From Burkholderiales bacterium (GTDB lineage Bacteria > Pseudomonadota > Gammaproteobacteria > Burkholderiales > SG8-39): a stretch of 64,000 nt of DNA. The stretch spans positions 108-64,107 of the forward strand of contig JBOIFE010000116.1 of the NCBI GenBank assembly GCA_050741015.1, given 5' to 3'. The notes below the pieces were generated by a model. The model made no database searches. It worked only from the letters and a program-made list of their open reading frames with translations, and had not been told where the DNA came from. The position numbers and the translations under genes are program-made. Shown here piece by piece: positions 562 through 64,000 of this stretch. Every line of letters begins with the position of its first letter. The stretch's first letter is position 1.

Positions 562-1886
562 TGATTCGACGCACTGTTCTAGCAGTCGCGGCGTGCCTGC
601 CCGTTGCCGCCGGCGCCGAGAACCTTTCGCAGGTCTATCAGGATGCGCGTGGGTACGACGCGCAATATGCGGCAGCTCGCCAGACCATGCAGGCGGGGCT
701 CGAGCACGAAGCGCAGGGCCGCGCGCTGGTGCTGCCCTCGCTGGGCCTCACCGCCAACGCGACGGATTCACGCCTGGACTCCCAGTCGGACAGCAACCTG
801 CTGGTCCCGAGCTTCACCCGCAACCTCAATAACTACGGCTACACGCTCACCTTCACGCAGCCGATTTACCGGCGCCAGAACTGGCTGCAGTACGACGAGG
901 GCCAGCTCCAGGCGAAGCAGGCGGAGCTCACGTTCGGCCAGGCCGCGCAGGACCTGGTCCTGCGCCTCGCCCAGGCGTATTTCGACGTGCTGGCGGCACA
1001 GGACACGCTCGCGCTGGTACGCGCGTCGAAGGTCGCCATCGCCGAGCAGCTCGCACAGGCGAAGCGCAACTTCGAGGTCGGCACTGCGACCATCACCGAC
1101 ACGCACGAAGCACAGGCGCGCTACGACCTGTCCGTGTCGCAGGAGATCTCCGCGCAGAACGATCTGGAGGCCAAGTCGCGCGCGCTGCAGCTCATCACCG
1201 GCAAGGAATACACGTCGCTGAAATCGCTGCGGCCCGACGTCAAGCTGTCGCCGCCGGTGCCGAACAACATGCAGACCTGGGTCGACCTCGCGCAAAAGCA
1301 GAGCTATGCGGTGCTGATCCAGGAGGCGACCACGGAGATCGCAGACCTCGAGGCGAAGCGAAACAGCGCCGGGCACCAGCCCACGCTCGACCTCGTCGCC
1401 AGCCACAACTACATCTGGCAGAACGCATCGACGCTGTCGGCGATCGGGAGCAACGTGACCACGGATTCCGTCAGTCTGCAGCTCGCACTCCCGCTGTACC
1501 AGGGCGGCGGCATCAGTTCGCGCGAGCGCGAGGCAGCCTACAACCTGGAGAAGTCACGCCAGGACCTGGAGAACGCGCGGCGCGCATCCGTGCTGGTGGC
1601 GCAGCAGGCCTACCTGTCCGTCATCAACGGCATCGCGCAGGTGGGTGCGCTGGAGCAGGCGCTCGTGTCCTCGGATAGCGCGCTGCAATCCAACCGGTTG
1701 GGCTACGAGGTAGGCGTACGCATCAACATCGACGTGCTGAACGCCCAGCAGCAGGTGTTCTCGACCAAGCGCGACCTGGCGGTGGCGCGCTACAACACGA
1801 TCACGACGCTGCTCAAGCTGAAGGCCGCGGCCGGAGGCCTGCGCGAGCAGGACCTCGAAGAGATCAACCAGGTCCTCGAGCAGTAA
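561..1886 (+). CDS. tolC: TolC-family outer membrane efflux/type I secretion channel
   Basis: Internal ATG of the 87..1886 ORF. Signal peptide MIRRTVLAVAACLPVAAGA followed by ENLSQVYQDARGYDAQYAAAR. Two OEP-type repeats (e.g. RYDLSVSQEISAQNDLE) and about 441 aa. The upstream part of the ORF is Arg/Ala-rich junk overlapping pcm. Confidence 0.85.
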   Translation: MIRRTVLAVAACLPVAAGAENLSQVYQDARGYDAQYAAARQTMQAGLEHEAQGRALVLPSLGLTANATDSRLDSQSDSNLLVPSFTRNLNNYGYTLTFTQPIYRRQNWLQYDEGQLQAKQAELTFGQAAQDLVLRLAQAYFDVLAAQDTLALVRASKVAIAEQLAQAKRNFEVGTATITDTHEAQARYDLSVSQEISAQNDLEAKSRALQLITGKEYTSLKSLRPDVKLSPPVPNNMQTWVDLAQKQSYAVLIQEATTEIADLEAKRNSAGHQPTLDLVASHNYIWQNASTLSAIGSNVTTDSVSLQLALPLYQGGGISSREREAAYNLEKSRQDLENARRASVLVAQQAYLSVINGIAQVGALEQALVSSDSALQSNRLGYEVGVRINIDVLNAQQQVFSTKRDLAVARYNTITTLLKLKAAAGGLREQDLEEINQVLEQ

Positions 1887-3123
1887 GCAGTCGCCGGCAG
1901 ACGTCGAGGTGGCGCACCGTCGCGCCCTGGTGGCGCGCGCAGAGCCGCTTGCCCGCGACGCCCATGCTCGCGCAACGCGCCGGATCCGCAAGCAGCGCCC
2001 GCGCCGCCTCGATCGCCGCATGCGCGTCGCCGACCTGGAGCGCAGCCTGCGCGCGCACCGCCAGCCGTGTGACGTCCGCGAAATTGAACATGTGCGGCCC
2101 GACCACCGCCGGCACGCCCGCGGCACAGGCTTCGATCAGGTTCTGGCCGCCGAGCGGCTCGAAGCTGCCGCCGATCACGGCCACGTCGCATAGCGCGTAG
2201 TAGAAGGCCATTTCGCCCATCGTGTCGCCCAGGTAGAGCCGGCGGCCCTGATGCGGTGCCTCGGCCAGGCTTCGCCGCGCGCTGCTCAGTCCGAGCCTCT
2301 GCGCGATCGCGGCGACCGCGTCGAATCGCTGCGGATGGCGAGGCACGAGGACGAGGAGCGCGTCGGGGTCCACGGCGACGCACTCGGCGAGCAACCGCTC
2401 CTCCTCGCCCTCGCGCGTGCTCGCGAGCAAAAGCACCTTGCGGTGGCGGAGCGCGGCGCGAAACGCGCGGCCCTCGGCCGACTTGCCCGGATCGGGCTCG
2501 ACGTCGAACTTGAGATTACCCGCGATCGTCACGTCCCTTGCGCCGAGCCGCCGCAGTCGCCGGGCGTCGGCCGCGCCTTGCACGCATGCGGCCGAGAGCG
2601 TGCCGAACGCCCGGGCGGCGAGCCGCCCAAATCGCAGGTAGCGGCGCGCCGACCGCTGGGACAGCCGCGCGTTGGCCAGCATCAACGGCACGCCGTCGAC
2701 GCGGCAGGACTCGATCAGGTTGGGCCAGATCTCGGTCTCCATCAGCACGCCGAGACGCGGCCGGAAATGGTCGAGGAACCGGCGCACGGCGTGCGGCAGG
2801 TCGTAGGGCGCATACGCGACGAGCGCCGTCTCCCCGAACACCTGCTTGGCAGCCTCGCGCCCGGCCGCCGTCATGCAGGTCACGAGCAGCGTGTGGTCGC
2901 CGTAGGCGCGCTGGAGCGCGCGCACGAGCGGCGCGCTGGCCCGCACCTCGCCGACCGAGACCGCGTGCACCCAGAGCAGTCGCGCACCCGGCTCGAGATC
3001 GCTCGCGCCAAAGCGCTCCTCGACGTGGTCCCGATAGCCCGGCTCGCGACGCCCGCGCCACCAGAGGCGCGCGAGCGCCCAGGGCAGCGCTGCATAAAGC
3101 AGCCATGTGTAGAGCGAACGCAA
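1864..3123 (-). CDS. waaA: 3-deoxy-D-manno-octulosonic acid (Kdo) transferase
   Basis: 419 aa. N-terminal anchor MRSLYTWLLYAALPWALARLWWRGRREPGYRDHVEERFG, with LWVHAVSVGE, METEIWPNL and GGSFEPLGGQNLIEA, all typical of WaaA/KdtA. Confidence 0.9.
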   Translation of the reverse strand: MRSLYTWLLYAALPWALARLWWRGRREPGYRDHVEERFGASDLEPGARLLWVHAVSVGEVRASAPLVRALQRAYGDHTLLVTCMTAAGREAAKQVFGETALVAYAPYDLPHAVRRFLDHFRPRLGVLMETEIWPNLIESCRVDGVPLMLANARLSQRSARRYLRFGRLAARAFGTLSAACVQGAADARRLRRLGARDVTIAGNLKFDVEPDPGKSAEGRAFRAALRHRKVLLLASTREGEEERLLAECVAVDPDALLVLVPRHPQRFDAVAAIAQRLGLSSARRSLAEAPHQGRRLYLGDTMGEMAFYYALCDVAVIGGSFEPLGGQNLIEACAAGVPAVVGPHMFNFADVTRLAVRAQAALQVGDAHAAIEAARALLADPARCASMGVAGKRLCARHQGATVRHLDVCRRLLTARGPG

Positions 3124-3148
3124 GGTGCCCTATGATAAGAGATACGTC

Positions 3149-4117
3149 ATGCATGTCCTCGTCACTGGCTGCGCCGGCTTCCTCGGCATGCACTGCGCGC
3201 AAAGGCTCCTTGCGCGCGGCGACGAGGTGCTGGGCGTCGACAGTCTTTCGGCCTACTACTCGGTCGAGCTGAAGCGCCTGCGCCTCGCCCAGCTCGAGGG
3301 CCGGCCCGGCTTCCGCTTCGAGCGGGTCGACCTCGCCCGGGACGGAGCCTGCGCTGCACTGCTCGAGTCGGCGCGGCCGGAGGCGGTTTTGCACCTCGCC
3401 GCGCAGCCGGGCGTGCGCTACTCGCTCGAGAATCCCGGCTCCTACGTCGAGTCGAACCTTGTCGCCTTCGGCAACCTGCTCGAGGCCTGCCGCCGGCGCC
3501 CGCCCCGTCACCTGGTCTACGCCTCCAGCTCGAGCGTCTACGGCGCGAACCCGAAGCTGCCGTGGTCCGAGGGCGACAACGTCGACCACCCGGTCAGCCT
3601 GTACGCTGCGACAAAGAAGGCGAACGAATTGATGGCGCACGCCTACAGCCACCTGCACGGCCTGCCGGCGACGGGACTGCGCTACTTCACGGTCTACGGC
3701 CCCTGGGGGCGCCCCGACATGTCGCCGATGCTCTTCGCGCGCGCGATCCTCGACGGCCAGGCCATTCGCCTGTTCAACCACGGCGACATGCGGCGCGATT
3801 TCACCTTCGTCGACGACGCGGTGGAAGCGACGATGCGCGTGCTCGACCGACCGCCGCCGGGAACGCCGCCGTGGCGCGTCTTCAACGTCGGCAACCGCCA
3901 GCCCGTGGCGCTGCTCGACTATGTCGCCGCGCTCGAGCGCGCGCTGGGCAAGCCCGCGCTGCGGGAACTGCTGCCGATGCAGCCTGGCGATGTCCCCGCC
4001 ACCTGGGCTGACACCCGCGCCCTCGAGGCCGCGACGGGATTCGCGCCCGCGACGCCCCTCGCCGCGGGCCTCGAGCGCTTCGCCGCCTGGCTCAGGTCGA
4101 CCGACCTCCCCTCGTAG
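3149..4117 (+). CDS. NAD-dependent epimerase, UDP-glucuronate 4-epimerase-like
   Basis: MHVLVTGCAGFLG Rossmann motif, DSLSAYYSVELKRLRL and the catalytic YAATKKANE (YxxxK). The start is taken at the second ATG; 3125 is the alternative. Confidence 0.75.
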   Translation: MHVLVTGCAGFLGMHCAQRLLARGDEVLGVDSLSAYYSVELKRLRLAQLEGRPGFRFERVDLARDGACAALLESARPEAVLHLAAQPGVRYSLENPGSYVESNLVAFGNLLEACRRRPPRHLVYASSSSVYGANPKLPWSEGDNVDHPVSLYAATKKANELMAHAYSHLHGLPATGLRYFTVYGPWGRPDMSPMLFARAILDGQAIRLFNHGDMRRDFTFVDDAVEATMRVLDRPPPGTPPWRVFNVGNRQPVALLDYVAALERALGKPALRELLPMQPGDVPATWADTRALEAATGFAPATPLAAGLERFAAWLRSTDLPS

Positions 4118-6916: not shown

Positions 6917-6917
6917 T

Positions 6918-7691: not shown

Positions 7692-7744
7692 GGGCTGCGA
7701 TTATCGCCCGTAGAATAGCGGCCCAATCCCGCTCGAGCGCTCCC

Positions 7745-10275: not shown

Positions 10276-10279
10276 GGGC

Positions 10280-11203: not shown

Positions 11204-12184
11204 ATGCAGCGCGCCCTCATCACTGGCGTGAACGGCCAGGACGGCTCCTATCTCGCCGAGCTCCTGCTTGCCAAGGGCTACGAGGTGCATGGCGTCGTAC
11301 GCCGCGACGCGCTGGAGGATCCGGCGCATCGGCTGGCGAACATCGCCGGCGTACGCGACCGAATCCAGCTGCACGTCGGCAGCCTGGAAAACCACCTGAG
11401 CATCTACAAGATCGTCGCGGCCGCGCGACCGGACGAGTGCTATCACCTGGCCTCGTCGAGCTTCGTCAGCTACAACTTCGAGGACGAGGCCTCGATCGTC
11501 GCCAGCAACTTCACCGCGACCCACGCCCTGCTCTCCAGCCTGAAGGAGCTCGCGCCCCGCTGCCGGGTCTACTTTGCGGGGTCGAGCGAGATGTTCGGCG
11601 ACTCAAAGACCTCGCCGCAGAACGAGCAGACTCCGTTCAATCCGCGGTCGGTCTATGGCATTTCCAAGCTCGCCGCCTTCCATCTCGCGCGCAACTACCG
11701 CGAGCACCACGGCCTGTTCGTCGCAGCCGGCATCCTGTTCAACCACGAGTCGCCGCGCCGCGGCCGCCAGTTCGTGACGCGCAAGGTCAGCACCGCGGTC
11801 GCCGAGATCAAGCTCGGACGGGCGAGCCGGCTCACGCTCGGCAACCTGGAGGCGCGGCGCGACTGGGGCTACGCGCCCGACTATGTGCGCGCGATGCACG
11901 CCCTGCTGCAGCGGCCTTCGCCCGTCGACTGCGTCGTGGCGACCGGCGTCACGCACAGCGTGCGCGACCTGCTGCGCGCGGCGTTCGCCGTCGTCGACCT
12001 CGAATTCGAGCGCTACGTCGACACGCAGCCCGAGTACTTCCGGCCGAGCGAGAAAGTGCCTCTGTGCGGCGACGCGTCGCTCGCAAAGAGAGAGCTCGGC
12101 TGGGCGCCGACCCGGGGCTTCGAAGAAATCGTCCGCGAGATGGTGCTCGCGGACCTCGAGCGGATCAGACAAGGCGGCGCGTAG
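11204..12184 (+). CDS. gmd: GDP-mannose 4,6-dehydratase, short form (second copy)
   Basis: Internal ATG of the 10259..12184 ORF. Motifs MQRALITGVNGQDGSYLAELLLAKGYEVHG, GSSEMFG, YGISKLAAFHLARNYRE and [12 protein letters not shown]. 326 aa. Confidence 0.8.
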   Translation: MQRALITGVNGQDGSYLAELLLAKGYEVHGVVRRDALEDPAHRLANIAGVRDRIQLHVGSLENHLSIYKIVAAARPDECYHLASSSFVSYNFEDEASIVASNFTATHALLSSLKELAPRCRVYFAGSSEMFGDSKTSPQNEQTPFNPRSVYGISKLAAFHLARNYREHHGLFVAAGILFNHESPRRGRQFVTRKVSTAVAEIKLGRASRLTLGNLEARRDWGYAPDYVRAMHALLQRPSPVDCVVATGVTHSVRDLLRAAFAVVDLEFERYVDTQPEYFRPSEKVPLCGDASLAKRELGWAPTRGFEEIVREMVLADLERIRQGGA

Positions 12185-12192
12185 GCCGGCGA

Positions 12193-12207
12193 CCGGCAAC
12201 TTGCCGG
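12193..12207. promoter_or_regulatory. perfect 7-1-7 palindrome CCGGCAA-C-TTGCCGG between gmd(short) and the MarR gene
   Basis: Read directly from the sequence. It lies 9 nt after the gmd stop and 46 nt before the MarR ATG. It could be an operator or a small RNA hairpin. No U-tract follows. Confidence 0.3.
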
Positions 12208-12252
12208 GGCGCCCCTTCTCGGGTCTAATGCCGGTGTGTTCAATGATTGAAC

Positions 12253-12609
12253 ATGCTGACTGACGAATACCGCTACCGTATCCTGAAGCTGCTGCAGGCC
12301 GACCCGCGCGCGAACCAGCGGCGCATCGCGGACGAGCTCGGCATCAGCCTCGGGCGCGTCAACTACTGCCTGCAGGCGCTGATCGCCAAGGGCCTGGTCA
12401 AGGCGAAGAATTTTCGCAACAGCACCAACAAGCGAGCCTACCTGTACCTGCTCACGCCCAAGGGCGTCGAGGCGCGGGCCAAGCTCACGGTGCGCTTCCT
12501 GCAGGTGAAGCTCGCCGAGTACGCGGAGCTGACGAGCGAGATCGGCGAGCTGCGGCGCGAAGTCGCGGGGATCGATGGACCCGGGGAGGGGCCGCATGCC
12601 GACACCTAG
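12253..12609 (+). CDS. MarR-family, EPS-associated transcriptional regulator
   Basis: Small winged-helix protein: YRILKLLQADPRANQRRIADELGISLGRVNYCLQALIAKGLVK. It resembles the EPS-locus MarR family (TIGR04176, from memory). The ATG at 12253 is preferred over the TTG at 12247. Confidence 0.75.
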   Translation: MLTDEYRYRILKLLQADPRANQRRIADELGISLGRVNYCLQALIAKGLVKAKNFRNSTNKRAYLYLLTPKGVEARAKLTVRFLQVKLAEYAELTSEIGELRREVAGIDGPGEGPHADT

Positions 12610-14997: not shown

Positions 14998-15002
14998 ACC
15001 GC

Positions 15003-21833: not shown

Positions 21834-21834
21834 G

Positions 21835-30568: not shown

Positions 30569-30577
30569 CGCAAACGA

Positions 30578-31702: not shown

Positions 31703-31704
31703 CG

Positions 31705-32787
<1,083 letters not shown>

Positions 32788-32850
32788 TGAGGGGACTTCG
32801 CCCGCCGCTTAGAATCCATCGGTGCACGCGCCCAACGCCGACCTCCCCGC

Positions 32851-33798: not shown

Positions 33799-33812
33799 GC
33801 AATCGCTACGTC

Positions 33813-35809: not shown

Positions 35810-35830
35810 GGCCTGATTGCCGCCGGTACG

Positions 35831-37814: not shown

Positions 37815-37817
37815 GGC

Positions 37818-38750: not shown

Positions 38751-38771
38751 GCGATTAGGTTCTTCCCGGAT

Positions 38772-39782: not shown

Positions 39783-40648
39783 TCGTCCGGGATCAGATCG
39801 ATGGTGCTGTGCGACGCATCTTGAAACCATTTCTGCGGGGCAACTACGACCTTTGTCCGGTTGCTACATAGCCAGGCGCCCCACCAGCTAAACGTGCTAT
39901 TTGCGATGATGTGATGCCGGCATAATGATAGGAGCCGCAAGTCTTCCTCGCCTCTCGTCACGGCATTGTGACGAAGAACGGTAGTCGGAAAGGGAAAACG
40001 CAAATTGGTCTCCGCCCATTCCGGGTCATCGGAGAAGATAAAGATGTGGGGATTCCCAACCCGTTGCCGAACCACGGCTATTGCTCGTTCGTAATACTCC
40101 GGTCCGCACGTGCCATGGTAGCGGCTCGTATGTGCATCGGCGACGTAGTCCCCTCGTCGGACATGCAATGAAACCGAAGTGCAATCCTCTATCATCTCGG
40201 CGAGCTCCAGATTCTTGCCGGCCAAGGGACAGCGGACCTTGAACTCCCCTCGCACTACCTCTTCGATTTCGTTGAAGTATTTTGGACTCTGCCAGTATCC
40301 ATCAAGGTAGATGCCGTCGCCCAATAAGAGAATCTGTGGGTCAAAGTGAAAATGCCTCTCCCGCACGAGCTTCGGCCCGGTCCAGCCAATAGCAGATGCA
40401 CCCTTGCGCAATAGCGTAGCCGTACTGCCCTGACCCAGCAGAAGACTCGCCAAACTGGAATGCCGCCGAAAGCTGACCTCCTTTGGCAGGCGGAAGCGGT
40501 CTAGCCGGAAGCCACCATGTAGTCGATAAGTGCGGAATCCACTGAGATCCAGCTGTAGTGGAACACGAAGTATCGCCGATAGGCGCCTTCCCGCGGCGTA
40601 CTGGAACATCTGATTTCCAAGGCCGCCAAGTACCCGAACAGTAATCAC
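39767..40648 (-). CDS. alpha-1,2-fucosyltransferase (GT11 family)
   Basis: The three GT11 hallmarks are all present: LGGLGNQMFQYAAG, SLHVRRGDY and NSTFSWWGAWL. Confidence 0.85.
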   Translation of the reverse strand: MITVRVLGGLGNQMFQYAAGRRLSAILRVPLQLDLSGFRTYRLHGGFRLDRFRLPKEVSFRRHSSLASLLLGQGSTATLLRKGASAIGWTGPKLVRERHFHFDPQILLLGDGIYLDGYWQSPKYFNEIEEVVRGEFKVRCPLAGKNLELAEMIEDCTSVSLHVRRGDYVADAHTSRYHGTCGPEYYERAIAVVRQRVGNPHIFIFSDDPEWAETNLRFPFPTTVLRHNAVTRGEEDLRLLSLCRHHIIANSTFSWWGAWLCSNRTKVVVAPQKWFQDASHSTIDLIPDEWVRV

Positions 40649-40681
40649 CCGGCGTCTGCTTCGGCAATCCAGCGCATCACG

Positions 40682-41410
40682 CTACGGTTGCCGAGCAACT
40701 CGCCAGTTCTCCCAAATGAATGGGTATTGGTAAGTAAGCGTGTGCGTTAACTGCAGCGCGGCGTGGATCTTCTTCATCCGATTTACCGCGTCCGGTACAA
40801 AATCATGGAACTGTACCTGGATATTATCGATCCTCTTTACGGTGCCTCGAACAATCAGATGCTCCAATAGCTCATACTCCGCGCCCTCAATATTTATCTT
40901 CATTAGATCGACACGTCCAGGAAAGTGTTTATCCAAGAAATCCGCGCCCGCGACTATGTCGATGGATTGAGCTTCACCATTTCGCTCACCTACGAAAGTT
41001 GAAGCGTCACCTGCGATTGTAATTTTCTCATTCCGGTCGCTTCCACCCAGACCAAACGGAAAAACGTGTATCCGATCGTTCGCACGGAATCGTCGCTTGA
41101 TGCTCTCACAGTATGCGTTGACCGGCTCAAAGATATGCACATCACACAAGTGCATTCCGAAAATATCGCTCGCCCACTGCCCTTCAAATCCGCCCACGTC
41201 CAAAACAACGGACTCTCGTCGCAGGTCATAGTCGAGCCTTAGCGTTTTATCACCTCTCACCGCAACCCATTCGCGGTGTGCTTCAACAATCATTTGCTTA
41301 ATGGGGTTAGGTTGCTCCACCGGCTGTGAGCGCCTGATAGAGCTGAGGCCGGGCAGACTTCCGATCCGCCGTCGTATTCGACCAAATAGCGCGCTTGGGT
41401 CAATAGGCAT
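40682..41410 (-). CDS. FkbM-family methyltransferase
   Basis: VLDVGGFEGQW and LMKINIEGAEYELL. Confidence 0.75.
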   Translation of the reverse strand: MPIDPSALFGRIRRRIGSLPGLSSIRRSQPVEQPNPIKQMIVEAHREWVAVRGDKTLRLDYDLRRESVVLDVGGFEGQWASDIFGMHLCDVHIFEPVNAYCESIKRRFRANDRIHVFPFGLGGSDRNEKITIAGDASTFVGERNGEAQSIDIVAGADFLDKHFPGRVDLMKINIEGAEYELLEHLIVRGTVKRIDNIQVQFHDFVPDAVNRMKKIHAALQLTHTLTYQYPFIWENWRVARQP

Positions 41411-41490
41411 GGTGGAGCTGTCGAATGACTACAAGGGGGTCGCTTCTTTCCTCGAGGACGACATCTTTTGGAATCCACCACCTGCGGCGA

Positions 41491-42360
41491 CTAGGTGTTC
41501 TTCCGAAACAACTGCACCGGCATTAGGCGACCTTCGCTGTCGACCCGATCTTGTCGTACTTTGTCCGCGGATCGCGTTCGCCACCATAGATCAACACTGT
41601 CTCTCAACTTGGGGCCACGGAAAGCGGGCACATACACAGGTTGCGCGGTCAAGTAGCAGTTACCGCGGTAGTCGCTTACCAAGTAGGTGAGATGAGCATT
41701 GGGAAACGATGCCTCTAGGTCAAATTCGGGCACCTCGAGTTTGTGAAAGTCGTCCGAGTGAACGAATATGCAGTTCGAGTCCGTCATGCATGCAAGCTTG
41801 TATCCCCTTTCAGCCGCAGCTCGCGTGATCGCCAATCCCGATGAGCCCAAATTACCGCCAGGTGACTGAAATAAGTCCAAGTGAGGCGGTATAGTCGGGT
41901 TGTACTCGACGACCAATACCCTTGGACGGATATTCTTCAGTGAACAGAGGATGTGATAGTCGTCGCCATCAATGTCGATACAAAGCAGATCTAGGTCTCT
42001 TTCCTCGTACCTAGCGCGTTTCACGAGGGAGTCGAGAGAGTCGTTTCCGCTTGGCGCCACAAATGCATTTAATACGGTGACCAAAGAGTTCGTGAGGACC
42101 CTTTGCCGTAACTGGGCACAGCGAGCTGTGTCCCCTTCTATGAGCAGCGCGCTCCACCCTTGGTCGTGCCAAAGTCGATAGGTATTGCTGAGATGCTTTC
42201 CATCCCAGGCTCCAAACTCGATACAGGTCTTTGTGCGCGGGACGATCCGGCGGAAAATTTCCTCGATAATTCCATCCTCGCCAAATTGCGACGTAATGTT
42301 CCTCGCATAGTTCGCGAGGGGTGGGGCACTGCTTCGAGGTTCTATATTCACGGTCATCAT
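41491..42360 (-). CDS. FkbM-like methyltransferase
   Basis: SQFGEDGIIEEIF, CIEFGAWDGKHLSNT, WSALLIEGD, LLCIDIDGDDYHIL and VLVVEYN. Confidence 0.6.
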   Translation of the reverse strand: MMTVNIEPRSSAPPLANYARNITSQFGEDGIIEEIFRRIVPRTKTCIEFGAWDGKHLSNTYRLWHDQGWSALLIEGDTARCAQLRQRVLTNSLVTVLNAFVAPSGNDSLDSLVKRARYEERDLDLLCIDIDGDDYHILCSLKNIRPRVLVVEYNPTIPPHLDLFQSPGGNLGSSGLAITRAAAERGYKLACMTDSNCIFVHSDDFHKLEVPEFDLEASFPNAHLTYLVSDYRGNCYLTAQPVYVPAFRGPKLRDSVDLWWRTRSADKVRQDRVDSEGRLMPVQLFRKNT

Positions 42361-42413
42361 TCAATTTGCTCTTAACTAGGAAATGCTTCAATCAACACTC
42401 AGGAGCCAGCGCG

Positions 42414-43718: not shown

Positions 43719-43727
43719 CGTGTCCTA

Positions 43728-44555: not shown

Positions 44556-44565
44556 GAACGAACAG

Positions 44566-45591
44566 CTACCTCAAAACGCGCGCGTGTACCTTCGACAATT
44601 TCCGCGAGTTCGCTTCCCACCGATAAGCAGTTGAGCAGCTGTCCGCCAGATCAGCATGCGCCGGCCGCCATCCGAGTACATTCCTGATCTTCGCCGATTC
44701 TGAGACCAACTCCACCGAATCCCCCGCCCTCCTCGTCCCCTCCTCGATCCGCAGCCTTATCCCGGCCGCCTTTTCCACCTCCAGCAACACCTCCCGCACG
44801 CTGTACCCACGCCCATACCCGACGTTGAATGTATTCGACGCACCACCATTTTCCAGATAGCGCAGCGCATCCATGTGCGCGCGCGCAAGGTCCTCGACAT
44901 GGATGTAGTCGCGAATGCACGTGCCGTCGGGCGTCGGGTAGTCGGTGCCGAAAATCGTGACCTTCTCCCGCGCGCCGCACGCGGCCTCGCAGGCGATCTT
45001 GATGAGGTGCGTCGCGTTTTCGGTCGCCTGGCCGAGCGTACCGTCGAGGCTCGCGCCCGCCACGTTGAAGTAGCGCAGGATCACGTGCCGCAAGGCGCCC
45101 GCCGCTCCGCTCGCGGCGACGTCTTCGAGCATCCACTCGGTGATGAGCTTCGACTTGCCGTACGGGTTGATCGGGCGCGTCGGCGCAGTCTCGGCGACCG
45201 GAACTTTCTCCGGCGTGCCATACACCGCAGCGGTCGACGAAAAGATGAACCGGGAGATGTTCTTGCACACGCAGACCTCGATCAGGTTGCGCGAGACACC
45301 GGTGTTGTTGCCGTAGTACTTGAGCGGATCGACTACCGACTCCGAGACGACGATGCTGCCTGCGAAGTGGATCACCGCTTCGACTCTGTGCTCGTCAATC
45401 AGCGCGCCGACGAGCGCAGTGTCGCCCGCGTTGCCGACTACCAGCGTCGCCTCGGGCGCCACCGCCCAGCGGTGTCCCGTGGAAAGATCGTCCAGCACGA
45501 CGACGCGGTGGCGCGCGGCAATCAACTGCCGCACCGTATGCGAGCCGATGTAGCCCGCGCCGCCCGTGACCAGGACCGTTCCGCTCGTCAT
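44566..45591 (-). CDS. galE: UDP-glucose 4-epimerase
   Basis: Internal ATG giving MTSGTVLVTGGAGYIGSH. Motifs FSSTAAVYG, YGKSKLITE and RDYIHVEDLA. Confidence 0.85.
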   Translation of the reverse strand: MTSGTVLVTGGAGYIGSHTVRQLIAARHRVVVLDDLSTGHRWAVAPEATLVVGNAGDTALVGALIDEHRVEAVIHFAGSIVVSESVVDPLKYYGNNTGVSRNLIEVCVCKNISRFIFSSTAAVYGTPEKVPVAETAPTRPINPYGKSKLITEWMLEDVAASGAAGALRHVILRYFNVAGASLDGTLGQATENATHLIKIACEAACGAREKVTIFGTDYPTPDGTCIRDYIHVEDLARAHMDALRYLENGGASNTFNVGYGRGYSVREVLLEVEKAAGIRLRIEEGTRRAGDSVELVSESAKIRNVLGWRPAHADLADSCSTAYRWEANSRKLSKVHARVLR

Positions 45592-45625
45592 GAGTCCGTG
45601 ATTGTATGGGAAACTTGCGACGCCG

Positions 45626-46486
45626 ATGGCGACGTTCTCGATCCTCATCCCAAGCTGGAACAACCTGCCTTACCTGCGCCTGTGCGTAGAGAGCCTGCGC
45701 CGGCATTCCGCGCGCGAACACCAGGTTGTCGTGCATGCAAATCCCGGTACGGACGGCACTCGCGAATGGTTGCTCGAAGAACGCATCGACCACACCGCGA
45801 GCGACGTAAACATCGGCATTTGCCACGCGCTCAACATTGCCGCGACCAAAGCGCGCTGCGAGTACCTTATCTACGTAAATGACGACATGGTCTTTGCGCC
45901 AGGATGGGACGTGGCGCTGGATCGTGCAATCGAGCGCGTTGCGCGCAACGAAATGTTTACGCTATCCGCGACCATGATCGAGCCGGTCGCCACCGGCAAT
46001 TCCTGCGTGGTAATCGCGAACTACGGGCGCGACCCGGCGAGCTTCGAGCTCGAGCGCTTTGCGAGCGATGCGCCTAAACTCGCGCGGGCGGATTGGCTCG
46101 GCGCAACCTGGTCGCCAACTCTGGTCGCTCGTTCGCTCTGGCACCAAGTCGGCGGATACAGCATCGAATTCTCGCCCGGCATGAGCAGCGAGAATGACTT
46201 TTCGATGAAGCTATGGAGCGCCGGATGCCGCGTATTTCTCGGCGTCGGCGACAGTCTCGTGTATCACTTCGCGGAAGTCTCGACGCGGCGCATGCGCAAG
46301 AACGACGGCCGGCAACAGTTCCTGCTCAAATGGGGCACTACGCAGTCGGCCTTCAGCAAGTACTATTTGCGTCGCGGCGATGTCGTGCCCTCAGGGGAAC
46401 AAGGGGTTCGCCTCCCGGAGCCTGAGCCCTCGTGGGGATTGCGGTGGCAGGGCGTCAAGGCCCAATTGAAGCGCCGCCTCGGTTGA
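45626..46486 (+). CDS. glycosyltransferase family 2-like
   Basis: FSILIPSWNNLPYLRLCVESL and YVNDDMVF. ATG at 45626 preferred over TTG at 45602. Confidence 0.7.
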   Translation: MATFSILIPSWNNLPYLRLCVESLRRHSAREHQVVVHANPGTDGTREWLLEERIDHTASDVNIGICHALNIAATKARCEYLIYVNDDMVFAPGWDVALDRAIERVARNEMFTLSATMIEPVATGNSCVVIANYGRDPASFELERFASDAPKLARADWLGATWSPTLVARSLWHQVGGYSIEFSPGMSSENDFSMKLWSAGCRVFLGVGDSLVYHFAEVSTRRMRKNDGRQQFLLKWGTTQSAFSKYYLRRGDVVPSGEQGVRLPEPEPSWGLRWQGVKAQLKRRLG

Positions 46487-46499
46487 ACGACTTGCGCGC

Positions 46500-46527
46500 C
46501 GCGACGACCTCCCGGAGGTTGCTCGCG
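46500..46527. terminator. imperfect hairpin between convergent genes (possible bidirectional terminator)
   Basis: CGCGACGACCTCC-C-GGAGGTTGCTCGCG. The stem is imperfect and there is no U-tract. It lies in the 47-nt gap between convergent stops. Confidence 0.25.
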
Positions 46528-46533
46528 ACGGCT

Positions 46534-47400
46534 TCACTCGCCACTGGCGTACTTGGCACGCAAGTAGGCCCCGAGGGCTTCGTTCCAACTACGCATCGTT
46601 ACGCCCAGGGCCCGCGCCTTGGTGTTCCCTAGAATCGAATAGAGCGGCCGGCGCATGCCGCCTGTCCTGCCGCCGCGGTCCACCGGCACGACCTCTGTCT
46701 GCGTGCCGCACAGACGCACGATCTCGCAGGTGAACTCGTACCAGGAACATTCGCCCTCGTTCACCAGGTGGTAGATACCCGGCGGCGCGAATTTCCCCAG
46801 CAGCGCATAGACGGCGCGGCTGAGGTCCTCGGTTGACGTCGGCGACACGACCTGCTCACTCGCCATCTCAATGCGCTTGCCGGCGCGCGCCTCGGTCACA
46901 CGGGCATCGACGAAGTTACCGCCCTTGGATCGCGCCCCGGAGCGCCCGTAGAGGCCGCACGTGCGTATCACCACGGCGTGCGCCGGCGCCGAGGCGAGCG
47001 CCGCGTACTCGCCGGCCAGCCGGCTCAAGCCGTAGACCTGCAAGGGGAACGGCCGGTCGTCCTCGCGCCAGGGCTCGCAGCGCGCGCCGCCGAAGACATA
47101 GTCGCTGCTAAAGGTCACCAGGCGCGCGTCCTGCCCGGCACAGGCCACGGCCAGATCCCGCACCGCCGTACAGTTAACCAGAAACGCCTGGCTCGGCTCG
47201 TCCTCGCATCGGAGCAGGTTGTGGAAAGCGGCGCAGTTGATCACTACATCGGGGCGCGAGGCCGCGACAAGTCGCGCGCCTTCCCCCGCCCGCGCGAGAT
47301 CGAGCTCCGCGCGCGACGGCGCGACGATCTCGTGACCGGGGTTGCTGCGCAGCAGGTCGCCGCCGAGTTGCCCGGTGGCGCCGATCAGCAGGATCTTCAT
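46534..47400 (-). CDS. RmlD-like NDP-4-ketohexose reductase (catalytic motif reads YxxxR)
   Basis: ATGA overlap start. Motif MKILLIGATGQLGGDL. The position equivalent to VYGxSKLAGE reads VYGLSRLAGE, with the Arg encoded by CGG (checked on the DNA). Confidence 0.75.
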   Translation of the reverse strand: MKILLIGATGQLGGDLLRSNPGHEIVAPSRAELDLARAGEGARLVAASRPDVVINCAAFHNLLRCEDEPSQAFLVNCTAVRDLAVACAGQDARLVTFSSDYVFGGARCEPWREDDRPFPLQVYGLSRLAGEYAALASAPAHAVVIRTCGLYGRSGARSKGGNFVDARVTEARAGKRIEMASEQVVSPTSTEDLSRAVYALLGKFAPPGIYHLVNEGECSWYEFTCEIVRLCGTQTEVVPVDRGGRTGGMRRPLYSILGNTKARALGVTMRSWNEALGAYLRAKYASGE

Positions 47401-47924
47401 GGCAGCAGGGCGTAGGAGCGGTCCCGCTCGGACAGCGTGGGCCCAGGCAGGGGCCAGCAGATGGCGAGCTTCGGATCGTCCCAACGCAGCCCGCGCGCGA
47501 GCTCCGGTTGGTAGGGCACCGACATCTGGTAGAGGACCTCGGCGTCGTCGGCGAGCGTCTGGAAACCGTGCGCGAAGCCTTCCGGCACGTACAGCGCGAG
47601 CCGGTTTGCCGCGTTTAGCTCCGCGGCGTGCCAGCGCAGGCGCGTGGCGGATTCCTCGCGCAGATCCACGATCACGTCCCAGATGGCGCCGCGCGTGCAA
47701 CGCACGACCTTGGCCTCCTCGTGTGGTGCCGCTTGGTAGTGCAGGCCACGCAAGGTCCCGCGGTTGTGGTTCCAGGAGACGTTGCATTGCGCCACAGCCG
47801 GGTTGAGACCGTGGCGCCTGAACTCCTCGGCGCAGAACGAGCGCGCGAAGAAGCCACGCTCGTCCTCCAGCCGCTCGAGCTCGATGGCAAAGGCGCCGGC
47901 AAGCGGCAGCGGCACGAATTTCAA
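47397..47924 (-). CDS. RmlC-like NDP-4-ketohexose 3,5-epimerase (cupin)
   Basis: TTG start (TTGA overlap). Motifs DERGFFARSF, LRGLHYQ and PEGFAHGF. Confidence 0.8.
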   Translation of the reverse strand: MKFVPLPLAGAFAIELERLEDERGFFARSFCAEEFRRHGLNPAVAQCNVSWNHNRGTLRGLHYQAAPHEEAKVVRCTRGAIWDVIVDLREESATRLRWHAAELNAANRLALYVPEGFAHGFQTLADDAEVLYQMSVPYQPELARGLRWDDPKLAICWPLPGPTLSERDRSYALLP

Positions 47925-49156
47925 TCGAGAACCCTCGTCTCGGGAATCGGCACCACGAATCGGCCGCCCCACGCATGAATCGCGCCCATCTGCGCTACGA
48001 CCTCGTCCTGCAGGTTCCACGGCAGTATCAGCACGTAGTCGGGCTTGTCCCGCAGGATGCGCTCGGGCGCGTGGATCGGAATGTGCACGCCGGGAAGGAA
48101 ACGCCCCTGCTTGTGCGGGCTGCGGTCCACCGTGTACGCAAGCAGATCCGCCCGGACACCACAATAGTTGAGAAGTGTGTTGCCTTTAGCGGGGGCGCCG
48201 TACCCGACGACACGCTTGCCGACTTCTTTTGCGCCAATGAGAAACTTGAGCAGGCTACGCTTTGCCGAGCGCACCTGGTCGGCGAATGCGCGGTACGTGT
48301 CGGCGCGCTCCAGGCCGGCCGCTCTCTCGCGGTTACGCAACTCCACAACCTTGTTCGACACCGGAAGCGCGGCGTTCGCCGCATGCCGCGCATAGATGCG
48401 CAGCGACCCTCCATGCGTCGGTATCTCGTCCACGTCGAACAGGGTCAGGCCGTGCGCCGCGAATACGTGCTCGGCAACGAGGAAAGAGAGATACGAGAAG
48501 TGTTCATGGTAGATGGTGTCGAACTGGCTCTCCTGCATCAGCCTGAGCAGGTGCGGAAACTCCATGGTCGCCACGCCGCCGGGCTTGAGCAGCACGGTCA
48601 TGCCGCGCACGAAGTCGTTCAGGTCCGGCACGTGCGCGAGCACGTTGTTGCCGAGGATCAGGTCCGCCTTGCGCCCGGCGGAGGCGAGGTCGGTCGCGGT
48701 CTTGGTTCCGAAGAACTTCACCAGCGTCGGCACGCCCTTCTTCTCGGCTACTGCCGCGACATTCGCCGCGGGCTCGATGCCGAGAACGGGAATGCCCTGC
48801 TCTACGAAGTACTGCAACAAGTATCCGTCGTTGCTCGCGATCTCGACCACGAAGCTGGCGGACGCCAGGCCCAGTCGCTTCTTCATCGCGTGCGCGTACG
48901 CCCTCGCGTGCGCCAGCCACGTATCCGAATAAGAGGAGAAGTAGGCGTAGTCGCTAAAGATCTGCTCCGGCGTCTCGAACTCTTCAAGCTGCACGAGAAA
49001 ACACTTTTCACAGACCCAGGCATGCAGCGGATAGAAGCGCTCCATGCGATTCAGGTCTTCTACTTTGAGGTAGGAATTCGATGGCGGCGACATGCCCAGG
49101 TCGGCGAATGAGAGCGTGAGAGGGGCCGCGCAGAAGCGGCAGATTCCCCGCTTCAT
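47921..49156 (-). CDS. NDP-hexose C-methyltransferase (TylC3/TcaB9-like)
   Basis: ATGA overlap start. N-terminal zinc ribbon CRFC..(x)..CEKC, SAM fold VVEIASNDGYLLQYF, and C-terminal C-methyltransferase domain VVGYGAPAKGNTLLNYCGV...PDYVLILPWNL. Confidence 0.75.
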   Translation of the reverse strand: MKRGICRFCAAPLTLSFADLGMSPPSNSYLKVEDLNRMERFYPLHAWVCEKCFLVQLEEFETPEQIFSDYAYFSSYSDTWLAHARAYAHAMKKRLGLASASFVVEIASNDGYLLQYFVEQGIPVLGIEPAANVAAVAEKKGVPTLVKFFGTKTATDLASAGRKADLILGNNVLAHVPDLNDFVRGMTVLLKPGGVATMEFPHLLRLMQESQFDTIYHEHFSYLSFLVAEHVFAAHGLTLFDVDEIPTHGGSLRIYARHAANAALPVSNKVVELRNRERAAGLERADTYRAFADQVRSAKRSLLKFLIGAKEVGKRVVGYGAPAKGNTLLNYCGVRADLLAYTVDRSPHKQGRFLPGVHIPIHAPERILRDKPDYVLILPWNLQDEVVAQMGAIHAWGGRFVVPIPETRVLD

Positions 49157-50217
49157 GCAGGCGACAAAGACATGTAGCGCTCGATTTGCCCAAGCGTCAG
49201 TTGCCGCGCGTCGCCGCCTTGTGCCTGCTTCTTGTACCAATCCACCGTCCACTCGAGCGCGGCCTGCAGGCGCAATCGCGGGCGCCAGCCCAGGCGCGCG
49301 CGAGCCTTCGTGCTGTCGAGCCTGAGGAAGTGAGCCTCGTGCGGGTGTGAGCCCTTGTCCACGGTCCAGCCTGCTGGCGGACCCCACAGGCGAGCCACTG
49401 TGGATACGATCGTCTCCACCGGGACAGCGTCCTCATTGTCCGAGCCAAAATTCCATCCTTCCGAGAAATCCCGAGGCGCGGCGCACAGGCGCTCAGCCAG
49501 CTGCAGATATCCCGACACCGGCTCGAGCACGTGCTGCCATGGGCGGACCGCTTTCGGATTGCGCACGAGTACAGATTTGCCTGCAGCGGTCGCGCGCACC
49601 ATATCCGGAACGATTCGGTCCGCCGCCCAGTCGCCCCCGCCAATCACATTGCCGGCCCTTGCCGACGCGAGCGCCGGTGCATCCTCGCCGCTGAAAAACG
49701 ACGCGCGGTAGGCGGTGGTCACCAGCTCGGCGCAGCCCTTGCTGCTGCTGTAAGGGTCCCGGCCGCCCATCGGATCGTCCTCGCTGTAGGACTGGCCGGT
49801 TTCCAGGTTCTGGTAGCACTTGTCGCTGGTGACGTTGACGATCGCGCGCACACTGCCTGCGCGGCGGGCCGCTTCCAGTACGTGCACAGTGCCCAGCACG
49901 TTCGTGGCGTAGGTACCAACCGGGTCCTCATAGGACGGGCGCACCAGCGACTGTGCCGCAAGATGGAAGACGACTTCGGGCTGGAATGCAGTGATCGTTT
50001 TCGACAGCGTCGCGAGATCACGGATGTCGGCGGTGGTGCTGGCGACGCCAGATGCGGGTCCGGCCAATTGCCACAGCGAAGGCATGCTCGCCGGCGCCAG
50101 CGCGTAGCCGGCGACTCGTGCCCCGAGCGAGCCGAGCCACAGCGCGAGCCACGCCCCCTTGAATCCGGTGTGACCGGTGACGAAGACTTTCTTGCCCGCC
50201 CAGAACCCGCCGCCCAT
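49153..50217 (-). CDS. rfbG: CDP-glucose 4,6-dehydratase
   Basis: KKVFVTGHTGFKGAWL, VNVTSDKCY, PYSSSKGCAELV and RPWQHVLEP. Confidence 0.85.
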   Translation of the reverse strand: MGGGFWAGKKVFVTGHTGFKGAWLALWLGSLGARVAGYALAPASMPSLWQLAGPASGVASTTADIRDLATLSKTITAFQPEVVFHLAAQSLVRPSYEDPVGTYATNVLGTVHVLEAARRAGSVRAIVNVTSDKCYQNLETGQSYSEDDPMGGRDPYSSSKGCAELVTTAYRASFFSGEDAPALASARAGNVIGGGDWAADRIVPDMVRATAAGKSVLVRNPKAVRPWQHVLEPVSGYLQLAERLCAAPRDFSEGWNFGSDNEDAVPVETIVSTVARLWGPPAGWTVDKGSHPHEAHFLRLDSTKARARLGWRPRLRLQAALEWTVDWYKKQAQGGDARQLTLGQIERYMSLSPA

Positions 50218-50984
50218 TACCACTTCTTCCACGGCGGATTGCCGCCCGCCCAGAGCTCCTCGAGATAATTCTTGTCGCGCAGAGTGTCCATCGGCTGCCA
50301 GAAGCCGCGATGAGAGTAAGCGGCCAGCTGGCGCTCGCGCGCTAGCCGCTCGAGTGGGTCGCGCTCCCACACAGTGGCGTCGCCCGCGATGAGCTCGACA
50401 ACCGAGGGCGAGCACACGAAAAAACCCCCGTTAATCCAGCCGCCGTCGCCCTTGGGCTTTTCCTGGAAGCTGGTCACGCGCGCGCCGTCCATGACCAGCG
50501 AGCCGAAGCGCCCGGGCGGCTGCACCGCGGTAAGCGTCGCCTTCACCTTCTGCGCCCGGTGGAAGGCGATCAGCGCTTTCAAGTCGACGTCGGCGACGCC
50601 GTCGCCGTAGGTGAAGCAGAAGTCCTCTTTGCCCAGGTGCGGCGCCACCCGCCTGAGGCGCCCCCCGGTCTGTGTGGCCTCGCCCGTGTCCACCAGCGTC
50701 ACCTTCCAGGGCTCGGCGCTCTTCTGGTGCACCTGCATCGAGTTGTCGCGCATGTCGAACGTGACGTCCGACATGTGCAGGAAGTAGTTGGCGAAGTACT
50801 CCTTGATGACGTAGCCCTTATATCCAAGGCACACGATGAACTCGTCCACGCCCTGCGCGGAATAGATCTTCATGATGTGCCAGATGATCGGCTTGCCGCC
50901 AATCTCGATCATCGGCTTGGGCTTCACGGCGGACTCCTCGCTAATCCGCGTACCCATGCCGCCGGCGAGAATTACCGCTTTCAC
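50217..50984 (-). CDS. rfbF: glucose-1-phosphate cytidylyltransferase
   Basis: GTG start giving [18 protein letters not shown]. Motifs [17 protein letters not shown] and [12 protein letters not shown]. Confidence 0.85.
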
Positions 50985-50991
50985 GCTCTCA

Positions 50992-52065
50992 TTATCGCCC
51001 TGATTCCAACAGCTCGAGCGCCGCTTCGATGACCCGCGCGGCGTCCATGCGATCGAGGCAATCCGCGCGGCTCTGCCGGTGCCGCTCGCAGCCCTCCTGC
51101 TGGCACGGGACGCATGCGAGCGAAGGCTCCTGCAGCAGCACGACGCGATCGCGCCGCTGGAGCGGCTGCACTTTCTCGTACGGCTCAGCGAGTCCCTCGC
51201 GCGGGATGGGCCCCCACAGCCGCGGATCGGTCGGGCCGAAGAGCGCAACCGTCGGTGTGCCGCACGCGGCGGCGAGGTGCGTGGTCGCGGTATCCGGACC
51301 CACGTAGACCGCCGCCCGCCGGAGGAGGTCCGCGGTCTGGGCGAACCGCAAGCGCCCGGTCGTGTCGGTGACGGAGGGGCGCACTCCCGCGAGCACCTCG
51401 CGCGCGTACGCAAGTTCGTCCGCTCCCGGGCCGCCCGTGATCACGACGCGCATCCCCTGGCCGTGCAGCCACGCGATCAGCGCGTGCCAGCCCGGCGTGT
51501 TCCAGCGCTTGTAGCGAAAGCGCGGCGCGAGGTGCAGCACCGCGAAGCGCTCGGTGGCCGCATCGAACTCGACGAGCTCGCGCCAGGCCGCGGCCGGCGT
51601 GTGCGCGGTCGGCGCGACCATCGCCGGCCGCCACTCAATCTCGAGCGCCTCCGCGAGCGCGCGGTAGGCGACCGGCCGCGGCTGCTCGGCCGGCGAAATC
51701 ACCGACCGCTCGAGCAGCAGCGATTTCCACCAGCGCTTGCCCGGCTCCGGCGGCAGGAGCCCCACGCGCCGTCGCGCCGCCAGCCAGCCGCAGAGGTGCG
51801 GGCGGTCCGCCGTCTCCGCGATCACCGCGAGGTCATATCGTTGCCCCAGCGCGCGCCAGAGCGGGAGGATCTCGCCGCGCTCGGTCGCGATCGCGCGGCG
51901 CACGTCCGGATTGCCTTCGAGCGCGCCCTCTCCACCAGCGAAGACGAGCGCGTCGATCGCGGCGACCGGGTAAGCGGCGCGCAGCGACCGGATGAGCGGC
52001 GTGGCGAGCAGCAGGTCGCCGAGGTAGCGCAGCGAGACGACGAGGATCGAGCGCGGGTCGTTCAT
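50992..52065 (-). CDS. GT9-family LPS heptosyltransferase
   Basis: [22 protein letters not shown] and [26 protein letters not shown]. Confidence 0.8.
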
Positions 52066-63999: not shown

Positions 64000-64000
64000 A

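Follow-up and report, generated by a model that had tools for sequence, protein, structure and literature searches.

The 64-kb window analysed here (the whole stretch of DNA, positions 108 to 64,107 of contig JBOIFE010000116.1, assembly GCA_050741015.1, from a bacterium of the order Burkholderiales) carries a long block of surface-glycan genes between waaA, which encodes the transferase for 3-deoxy-D-manno-octulosonate (Kdo), and a heptosyltransferase gene of glycosyltransferase (GT) family GT9. A preliminary description, made from the letters alone, had read this block as one fused locus for two distinct surface polysaccharides. At issue are the likely products of its two initiating enzymes and its two export machines, the flippase Wzx and the ABC transporter Wzm/Wzt, and the likely role of a single WaaL-family protein encoded beside msbA. 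The block is made up as follows, with the profiles that named the genes in brackets.

1864..3123, minus strand: waaA, Kdo transferase and backbone anchor (Glycos_transf_N, 217 bits)
3125..4117, plus strand: NAD-dependent sugar epimerase/dehydratase, GalE-like (Epimerase, 189 bits; NCBIfam galE, 138 bits, below cut-off)
4092-5951, minus strand: WbpM/WbiI/PglF-type membrane UDP-N-acetylhexosamine (HexNAc) 4,6-dehydratase (Polysacc_synt_2, 370 bits)
5948-6916, minus strand: WbpL/WecA-family HexNAc-1-P transferase (PF00953, 99 bits; NLYNFMDGSDG motif intact)
6918-7691, minus strand: compact short-chain dehydrogenase/reductase (SDR) of 257 aa (Epimerase)
7766-9175, plus strand: manC (Pfam)
9148-10275, minus strand: GT4-family enzyme (Pfam)
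10280-11119, minus strand: GT2-family enzyme (Pfam)
11204..20904, plus strand: Wzx cassette (Pfam, NCBIfam)
20859..26183, minus strand: precursor block of fcl, gmd, rmlD, rmlC, rmlA and rmlB (Pfam)
26191..27963, minus strand: msbA, lipid A-core flippase and backbone gene (TIGR02203, 760 bits against an equivalog cut-off of 602)
27987..29189, minus strand: WaaL-family (Wzy_C) protein (Wzy_C, 77 bits)
29189-30568, minus strand: WbaP-like polyprenyl-phosphate hexose-1-P transferase, a phosphoglycosyltransferase (PGT) (Bac_transf, 224 bits; TIGR03025, 361 against a cut-off of 296)
within 29189..32787, minus strand: two GT4 enzymes after the PGT, candidate adaptor steps (Pfam)
32851-33798, plus strand: inverted GT2 (Pfam)
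32851..42360, mixed strands: ABC-cassette genes for chain elongation and putative termination (Pfam)
41491-42360, within the ABC cassette: Pfam-less, weakly FkbM-like protein of 289 aa
42414-43718, minus strand: Wzt, 434 aa (ABC_tran, 77 bits)
43728-44555, minus strand: Wzm, ABC-2 permease (ABC2_membrane, 67 bits)
44566..50984, mixed strands: epimerase, inverted GT2 (45602-46486, plus strand) and CDP-sugar branch (Pfam)
50992..52065, minus strand: GT9 heptosyltransferase, backbone anchor (Glyco_transf_9, 101 bits)

Profile annotation bore out what had been observed at the locus. The waaA, PF00953, Bac_transf, Wzx, Wzm/Wzt, Wzy_C, MsbA and GT9 genes were all found by Pfam and NCBIfam at the positions first given for them, and the view that the whole block is glycan-related holds for 46 of its 49 genes, which have a glycan domain. 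Of the other three, one is an HTH_24 regulator (12247-12609) and two are soluble proteins that have no Pfam match (18306-19259 and 41491-42360), both of the latter being conserved members of their respective cassettes. The estimate of about 16 GTs was recovered as 12 internal enzymes, WaaA, GT9 and the two initiating enzymes, and all four nucleoside diphosphate-sugar branches (GDP, dTDP, UDP and CDP) were found. Two initiating enzymes of different families and two export machines do lie in one contiguous locus that adjoins lipid A-core genes. The initiators and exporters have normal lengths and intact signature motifs (those of WbpL, the PGT, Wzt and MsbA were checked), with RIDELPQ and GPRP present in the PGT. 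As had also been reported, the window has neither Wzz nor a second Wzy: no Wzz domain occurs among its called and Pfam-scanned genes, and a six-frame hydrophobicity scan for a hidden Wzy (at least five segments) returned only five strongly polytopic reading frames, those of WbpL, Wzx, Wzy_C, the PGT and Wzm.

The GC content is about 69% across the window and falls to 51-56% at 39.6-44.6 kb. Raw lists of open reading frames (ORFs) are useless at such a composition, and genes were called with a self-trained codon model whose training set was 13 confident ORFs; the resulting map is tightly packed, with many ATGA-type overlaps. Pfam profiles were run on every gene and NCBIfam models on key genes. 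All window proteins were mapped onto 80 related loci anchored on MsbA, and about 90 related loci, cited below by L numbers, were compared overall. The closest genomes are metagenome-assembled genomes of uncultured soil and groundwater betaproteobacteria, with MsbA identities of at most 77-81%. The NCBI entries MGH8687192.1, MGH8687204.1 and MGH8687217.1 each have an identical counterpart among the window proteins; exact-sequence searches gave no match for MsbA and only a 3.5-kb Logan contig for the PGT and the ligase-family protein. The accession numbering of the NCBI entries allows for 12 proteins in the interval bounded by the ligase-family protein and by Wzt, where the gene map has 13 (29189-42414), so that one mapped ORF there has no deposited protein; all 13 have homologue-like lengths. 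Promoter and terminator scans for operon boundaries gave counts no higher than those of shuffled controls.

Among the precursor genes, the GDP branch consists of manC, gmd, fcl and a second gmd-like gene, the dTDP branch of rmlBACD, the UDP branch of the WbpM-like dehydratase, and the CDP branch of rfbF and rfbG, which score 466 bits with TIGR02623 and 475 bits with TIGR02622, both over the equivalog cut-offs. Gmd passes TIGR01472, and Fcl reaches 462 bits against a cut-off of 500. By its Pfam content the fcl/gmd/rmlDCAB block would supply GDP-L-fucose and dTDP-L-rhamnose, and it is kept beside msbA in most relatives. The CDP branch (46534-50984, minus strand) encodes a glucose-1-P cytidylyltransferase, a CDP-glucose 4,6-dehydratase, a Methyltransf_13/14 C-methyltransferase, an RmlC-like epimerase and an RmlD-like reductase, a content that predicts a rare CDP-6-deoxy-3-C-methyl-hexose donor. 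In the related contig L085, the rmlBACD operon is interrupted at 14826-16872 by genes of toxin-antitoxin type (HepT-like plus nucleotidyltransferase, and HicB-like).

Comparison with the relatives gives the locus a backbone. Most of the 80 msbA-anchored loci have the order priA-hemE-EVE-zapA-PBP-tonB-GT9-msbA-rmlBACD, in which GT9 adjoins msbA (tonB-GT9-msbA is present in L018-L033 and others). Because the two genes are neighbours in most relatives and stand 23 kb apart in the window (27987-50984), the GT9-msbA junction is a variable slot. In the closest relatives this slot holds the Wzy_C gene, with or without PGT and GT4 genes, and the triad of WbpM-like dehydratase, WbpL and SDR stands beside msbA in L022, L025, L073 and L074. 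The gene orders show a conserved lipid A-core backbone (waaA ... rmlBACD-msbA / GT9), onto which conserved cassettes have probably accreted. The earlier idea of a fused locus survives as far as contiguity goes; the fusion itself would be cassette accretion on a conserved backbone, recurrent in relatives and not specific to this genome. The placing of an ABC and a Wzx cassette on either side of msbA-rml-gmd-fcl is a clade architecture rather than a one-off, and the msbA-GT9 slot is a hot spot in uncultured soil Burkholderiales at which O-glycan cassettes, partly of low GC, gather beside lipid A-core genes. A search for a mobile-element signature around the low-GC segment found no tRNA, insertion sequence or flanking direct repeats; the repeats that it did return were the paralogous genes gmd/gmd2 and GT4/GT4.

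The Wzx cassette runs from a gmd-like dehydratase through HTH_24, two DegT aminotransferases, a hexapeptide acyltransferase, Wzx, a GT4 enzyme, a 317-aa protein and Methyltransf_23 to an FkbM methyltransferase. Wzx itself (15683-17146) is well supported, with 263 bits for Polysacc_synt_3 and 380 bits for NF007773 against a cut-off of 273. In L088, L089 and L090 the array recurs, convergent on fcl/gmd, as HTH, DegT, DegT, hexapeptide acyltransferase, (methyltransferase), Wzx, GT4, 317-aa protein, methyltransferase and FkbM; in L007 and L083 the 317-aa protein and GT4 adjoin fcl, and in L082 the 317-aa protein stands there alone. No Wzy was found in the five related contexts examined, which include these three contigs and the distant, modified L091, the view in L088 to L091 extending over up to 17 kb. 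The two Pfam-less proteins (18306-19259 and 41491-42360) were considered as the missing Wzy and rejected, as they have zero transmembrane segments and no sequence relatives in the PDB; at relaxed Pfam thresholds, their sole match was a weak one to FkbM, in 41491-42360. The 257-aa SDR of the triad was likewise considered as an internally deleted pseudogene and rejected, as its counterparts in L022 and L005 are equally compact and the GxxGxxG and YxxxK motifs are kept.

With no Wzy in the window or in the relatives examined, a short oligosaccharide used en bloc is likelier than a polymer, and the Wzx cassette, on its gene content and with the priming triad and two further GTs upstream of it, probably makes a single oligosaccharide unit and not a second polymer. 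It might be supposed instead that two full polysaccharides are made, a WbpL-primed Wzx/Wzy heteropolymer and a WbaP-like-primed ABC polymer, with Wzy and Wzz encoded elsewhere in the genome. Wzx and WbpL are both intact, as this would require, and in some bacteria the wzy and wzz genes do lie outside the O-antigen clusters. This arrangement is nonetheless unlikely, given the recurrence of the cassette without Wzy in L088 to L091, the lack of Wzy and Wzz in the window, and the short units that are made by Wzy-less Wzx clusters beside ABC O-antigen clusters in Bordetella and Burkholderia. Of the two polysaccharides first proposed, the two intact routes and the two initiators stand and the second polymer is not established; the preliminary description had itself named an export or initiation gene serving an unrelated glycan, or a single detectable polymer, as telling against its proposal, and a Wzx route that probably yields one short unit comes close to that. 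More generally, the locus cautions against taking every Wzx as the sign of a second polymer.

The ABC cassette can be followed in two relatives. Leftward from the transporter, the window has the 289-aa protein, an FkbM methyltransferase, a GT11 fucosyltransferase-like enzyme, GT2, an epimerase, GT4, a Methyltransf_24/CmcI-like protein and two further GT2 enzymes, and this order of elongation and termination genes is shared with L087 and L085 at 41-74% identity. L087 has rmlC- and rmlD-type genes, wzm (80%), wzt (74%), the 289-aa protein (64%), FkbM, GT11, GT2, epimerase, GT4, Methyltransf_24, three GT2 and a GT4, in the gene order of the window and with low GC over wzm to GT11 in both; the RmlC- and RmlD-type genes ahead of its wzm have the rmlC and rmlD of the window as their best match. 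L085 has GT2, epimerase, GT4, Methyltransf_24, three GT2, two GT4, the PGT (81%), Wzy_C, msbA, rml, gmd and fcl. Because these co-linear arrays overlap, the PGT can be tied to Wzm/Wzt, and the block of PGT and two GT4 genes is kept in L002, L010, L082 and L085 and slightly rearranged in L083 and L086. By synteny through the two overlapping contigs, the PGT is thus linked to the ABC pathway as its candidate initiator, and WbpL is present in the same locus too.

The last point opens the way to a different assignment, in which WbpL primes the ABC polymer and the short unit is made, with Wzx, by the WbaP-like PGT and its two GT4 enzymes, or in which both routes share one initiator. The ABC-dependent O-polysaccharides of the best-known model systems are indeed primed by polyprenyl-phosphate HexNAc-1-P transferases (PNPT enzymes), WbpL primes both O-polysaccharides of Pseudomonas aeruginosa, and L021 and L028 show a weak wzm-like match after rmlBACD with no PGT in view. 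Such an exchange of initiators is rather unlikely all the same, as the genes for the PGT and the two GT4 enzymes adjoin the array of GT, methyltransferase, Wzt and Wzm genes, run in its direction and turn up with portions of it in L085, L086 and L087, the Wzx cassette recurs without the PGT, and a WbaP-primed, ABC-dependent O-antigen occurs in Myxococcus xanthus.

Wzt resembles the characterised carbohydrate transporters in its build. It has intact Walker A, signature and Walker B motifs, its best PDB matches in sequence and in fold are WzmWzt, and it consists of a nucleotide-binding domain and an all-beta C-terminal extension of about 170 aa, comparable to the nucleotide-binding domain and C-terminal beta-sandwich of Aquifex aeolicus Wzt (7k2t/8dku) and of the E. 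coli O9a protein. Residues 54-373 align to the full-length A. aeolicus Wzt 8dku, including the carbohydrate-binding domain, with 30% identity to the full-length protein, and full-length WzmWzt chains make up its seven best fold matches (E 1e-33). It departs from the WzmWzt models in its Wzt_C match, which is weak at 18.7 bits (cut-off 30.4; PF14524 is present in homologues that are 54-63% identical), and in its priming, which is probably by a PGT and not by WecA. The Wzt/Wzm region has a GC content of 0.51-0.56, and Wzt homologues at 52-60% identity come from Geobacter, Sulfurimonadaceae, Desulfuromonadaceae and Hyphomicrobium, a taxonomic spread that fits a mobile transporter module.

As in cap-dependent export systems, methyltransferase genes adjoin the transporter, namely those for FkbM, the weakly FkbM-like 289-aa protein and Methyltransf_24; no kinase/methyltransferase of WbdD type was found in the ABC cassette. 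The carbohydrate-binding domain of Wzt and these three methyltransferase-type genes together point to cap-dependent export, in which the methyltransferases, judged by their domain families, would provide the cap and terminate the chain.

Between the PGT and msbA lies the most unusual gene of the locus. An AlphaFold2 model of the Wzy_C protein (pLDDT, the predicted local distance difference test score, 91) has about 12 transmembrane helices, and its best fold match in the PDB is the Cupriavidus metallidurans ligase WaaL (CmWaaL, 7tpg; TM-score 0.70, E 9e-10), followed by FtsW and RodA at about 0.45. The sole PDB sequence match is again the Cupriavidus WaaL, over the full length. In the 12 closest relatives, with or without a PGT, msbA has a Wzy_C homologue next to it. 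The fold and the msbA synteny favour a WaaL-type ligase, and the protein shares with CmWaaL (7tpg/7tpj) the Wzy_C domain, the transmembrane helices, the conserved Arg and the linkage to msbA and core genes.

Where the two proteins differ is in the H(X10)G motif, whose His is regarded as catalytic in WaaL. In the window protein the place of this His is taken by Glu313 (sequence ENQYLYSAVELG), and the downstream Glu of CmWaaL is Gln. A family sample was made up of the 150 nearest representatives at 50% identity, drawn from 1.84 billion proteins; position 313 is His in 143 of these, Glu in 3 (all of them in the clade of the query), and Gly and Leu in one each. Of the conserved periplasmic-loop arginines, both of which the window protein has, R269 is found in 149 of the 150 and R198 in 125. 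Clusters at 90% identity divide sharply, those with 50% or more identity to the query having Glu (one has Ala) and those below 50% having His. The Glu313 clade comprises more than 100 such clusters (P0002-P0107), all metagenomic, and the change from His to Glu goes together with E315Q, G267N and further substitutions, with no compensating His among the Glu-clade-specific positions. A Bac_transf PGT lies within four genes in six of the seven Glu-type contexts examined, and His-type contexts have WbpL and a WbpM-like gene, or core GTs only. The His of the motif is put forward as the WaaL catalytic residue in two papers (PMC12800693, PMC9938171).

A replacement of this kind raises the possibility that the protein is a polymerase or another GT-C enzyme rather than a ligase, one that might polymerise Wzx-flipped units, with the true WaaL encoded elsewhere. 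The loss of a near-invariant His together with the coupled E315Q and G267N changes would suit such a role, as would the fact that no NCBIfam model names the protein, and PMC9938171 describes an annotated waaL homologue of Brucella as not being the main ligase. Several features make a non-ligase quite improbable, however: WaaL is the best fold match by a TM-score of 0.70 against 0.45 for FtsW/RodA, identity to His-bearing homologues is 40-45%, with some of these in the same msbA-adjacent slot, the Arg residues of the ligase motif are retained, and the gene travels with the PGT/ABC cassette, in which a polymer made in the cytoplasm needs a ligase and not a polymerase. The question of ligase or polymerase, left undecided in the preliminary description, is narrowed toward the WaaL type by fold and synteny and is not closed, with the catalytic His replaced. 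The Glu313 protein may be a ligase of altered chemistry, a ligase specialised for PGT-primed donors, or a protein of changed function.

A more specific proposal can be put forward, tentatively and with more doubt than confidence, that the Glu313 proteins form a mechanistically distinct WaaL branch of soil betaproteobacteria, in which a carboxylate, possibly with a metal, replaces the His, and that they may be specialised for WbaP-type-primed, Wzm/Wzt-exported glycans, possibly ligating the polymer onto the Wzx-delivered unit. The Glu is kept under evident constraint at the position of a His regarded as catalytic in WaaL, PglL and PglS alike. If the Glu313 proteins are active ligases, they would allow the mechanism proposed for WaaL to be tested on a natural variant, and the clade could yield ligases or oligosaccharyltransferase-like enzymes with other donor preferences for glycoengineering.

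Taken together, the gene content and its recurrence in relatives suggest, with a probability of about 0.5, a locus for lipopolysaccharide (LPS) and surface glycan that arose by cassette accretion on a lipid A-core backbone and that encodes one polymer and one short unit rather than two polymers. The first cassette (roughly 28-51 kb, with most of its genes on the minus strand) would be an ABC-transporter-dependent O-polysaccharide pathway. In it, the WbaP-like PGT would load hexose-1-P onto undecaprenyl phosphate and the two GT4 enzymes would add an adaptor, after which GT2, GT4 and GT11 enzymes would build a 6-deoxyhexose-rich chain in the cytoplasm from rhamnose, fucose and CDP-derived 3-C-methyl-6-deoxyhexose donors. 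Methyltransferases would cap the chain, the carbohydrate-binding domain of Wzt would read the cap, Wzm/Wzt would export the complete chain, and the msbA-adjacent WaaL-family protein would attach it to lipid A-core. In the second cassette (about 3-21 kb), the triad of WbpL, WbpM-like dehydratase and SDR would prime with a 6-deoxy-HexNAc, and a few GTs, the amino-sugar branch and the methyltransferases would complete a short oligosaccharide. Wzx would flip this oligosaccharide, which, without Wzy, would be transferred en bloc as a single unit, either to the LPS core, as is the band A trisaccharide of Bordetella, or to proteins, as in the O-glycosylation cluster of Burkholderia.

Several points weigh against this scheme. 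It covers 64 kb only, and Wzy, Wzz, PglL or a second WaaL may lie elsewhere. The best-known ABC-dependent O-polysaccharides are primed by WecA/WbpL-type (PNPT) enzymes, as in E. coli O9a, Klebsiella pneumoniae and the common polysaccharide antigen (CPA) of P. aeruginosa, and by analogy with CPA WbpL could prime the ABC polymer here. The link of the PGT to Wzm/Wzt depends on two overlapping partial contigs, neither of which shows both ends. The ligase-family protein lacks the catalytic His, and its role as a ligase is not secure. Finally, the sugars named for the polymer are those suggested by domain families.

The preliminary description had started from the premise that each pathway has its own initiating enzyme and that two glycans are encoded at separate loci, which is too strong, as Bordetella wlb/wbm and the Burkholderia cenocepacia cluster contradict it and P. 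aeruginosa shares WbpL between both of its O-polysaccharides. In P. aeruginosa, CPA is exported by Wzm/Wzt and the O-specific antigen (OSA) depends on Wzx/Wzy, one WaaL attaches both, and waaL lies near msbA among core genes. The window resembles it in its two alternative routes for lipid-linked glycans, in its single WaaL-family protein and in the place of that gene near msbA. It differs in that P. aeruginosa uses separate loci, a single shared initiator and, for OSA, a true Wzy with Wzz.

Bordetella (B. bronchiseptica and B. parapertussis) is another parallel. Its wlb genes encode a WbpL-like initiator, a WbpM-like dehydratase, DegT aminotransferases and an acetyltransferase that give a short, amino-sugar-rich unit, and its wbm O-antigen is ABC-transporter-dependent. 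The Wzy-less wlb cluster, for the band A trisaccharide, adjoins the wbm O-antigen cluster (PMC2279256; PMC3849452). The window likewise has, within the same order Burkholderiales, a Wzy-less, probable short-unit cluster beside an O-polysaccharide cluster, and the traits of an en bloc cluster found in it are a PNPT initiator, a WbpM-like dehydratase, an aminotransferase, an acetyltransferase, a flippase, no polymerase and the adjacent O-polysaccharide cluster. In contrast to Bordetella, the proteins are non-orthologous, the predicted sugars are 6-deoxyhexoses with methylation and a CDP branch, there is a second initiator of WbaP type, msbA, rml, gmd and fcl lie between the cassettes, and the ligase-family protein has Glu for His.

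The genus Burkholderia offers a second parallel; to our knowledge, its waaL lies outside the O-antigen cluster. In B. cenocepacia K56-2/IST439, the O-antigen cluster beside waaA contains wzx, wzm/wzt, two HexNAc-1-P transferases, wbiI-wbiH-wbiG and rmlBACD; it lacks wzy, and its GC content falls sharply across a hybrid wzm/wzt segment (PMC5462993). Its wzx sub-cluster is ogcXABEI, for protein O-glycosylation, whose trisaccharide is moved to proteins by PglL, encoded elsewhere. The window shares with it the adjacency to waaA and core genes, wzx together with wzm/wzt, two initiators, rmlBACD, the lack of wzy and low GC around wzm/wzt. Both initiators of B. cenocepacia are HexNAc-1-P transferases, however, and one of those in the window is a Bac_transf PGT. 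Orthology to ogcX was rejected, as Wzx scores 168 bits with NF058658 (Oglyco_Wzx) against a cut-off of 720 and the composition of the cassette differs; an origin from Burkholderia was rejected on the identity of the nearest genomes. Since Wzx is not an OgcX orthologue, the resemblance to Burkholderia is one of logic and not of descent. Oxalobacteraceae also have wzm/wzt and wzx without wzy. The layout of the locus is already known from Bordetella and Burkholderia, and its unusual part is the Glu-for-His ligase-family protein; the locus is a useful but ordinary example, in which the Glu-for-His clade is the one element that could repay experiments.

The glycan block ends at 52065 and is followed by a cobalamin riboswitch with a TonB receptor, zapB/zapA, 6S RNA, hemE, priA and argS. 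The riboswitch (RF00174, 95 bits; 54722-54952, minus strand) is upstream of the TonB-dependent receptor gene (52608-54680), and a Peripla_BP_2 binding-protein gene (54971-55858) is divergent from it; together they look like a B12 uptake unit that abuts the glycan locus. In the gap between GT9 and the TonB receptor, a 75-aa ORF (52316-52543, minus strand) has coding-like codon usage and weak HicB/UPF0150-like matches. The 6S RNA (RF00013, 47.5 bits against a gathering score of 46.4; 56470-56657, plus strand) comes directly after a zapB-like gene (55934-56125) and zapA (56122-56454), with an EVE-domain gene next. Toward the end of the window, two adjacent paralogues (62773-63411 and 63421-64000, both on the plus strand) share a repeat that encodes FFWYGCPHCY and FFYYGCPVCY, putative DsbA-like thioredoxin motifs.

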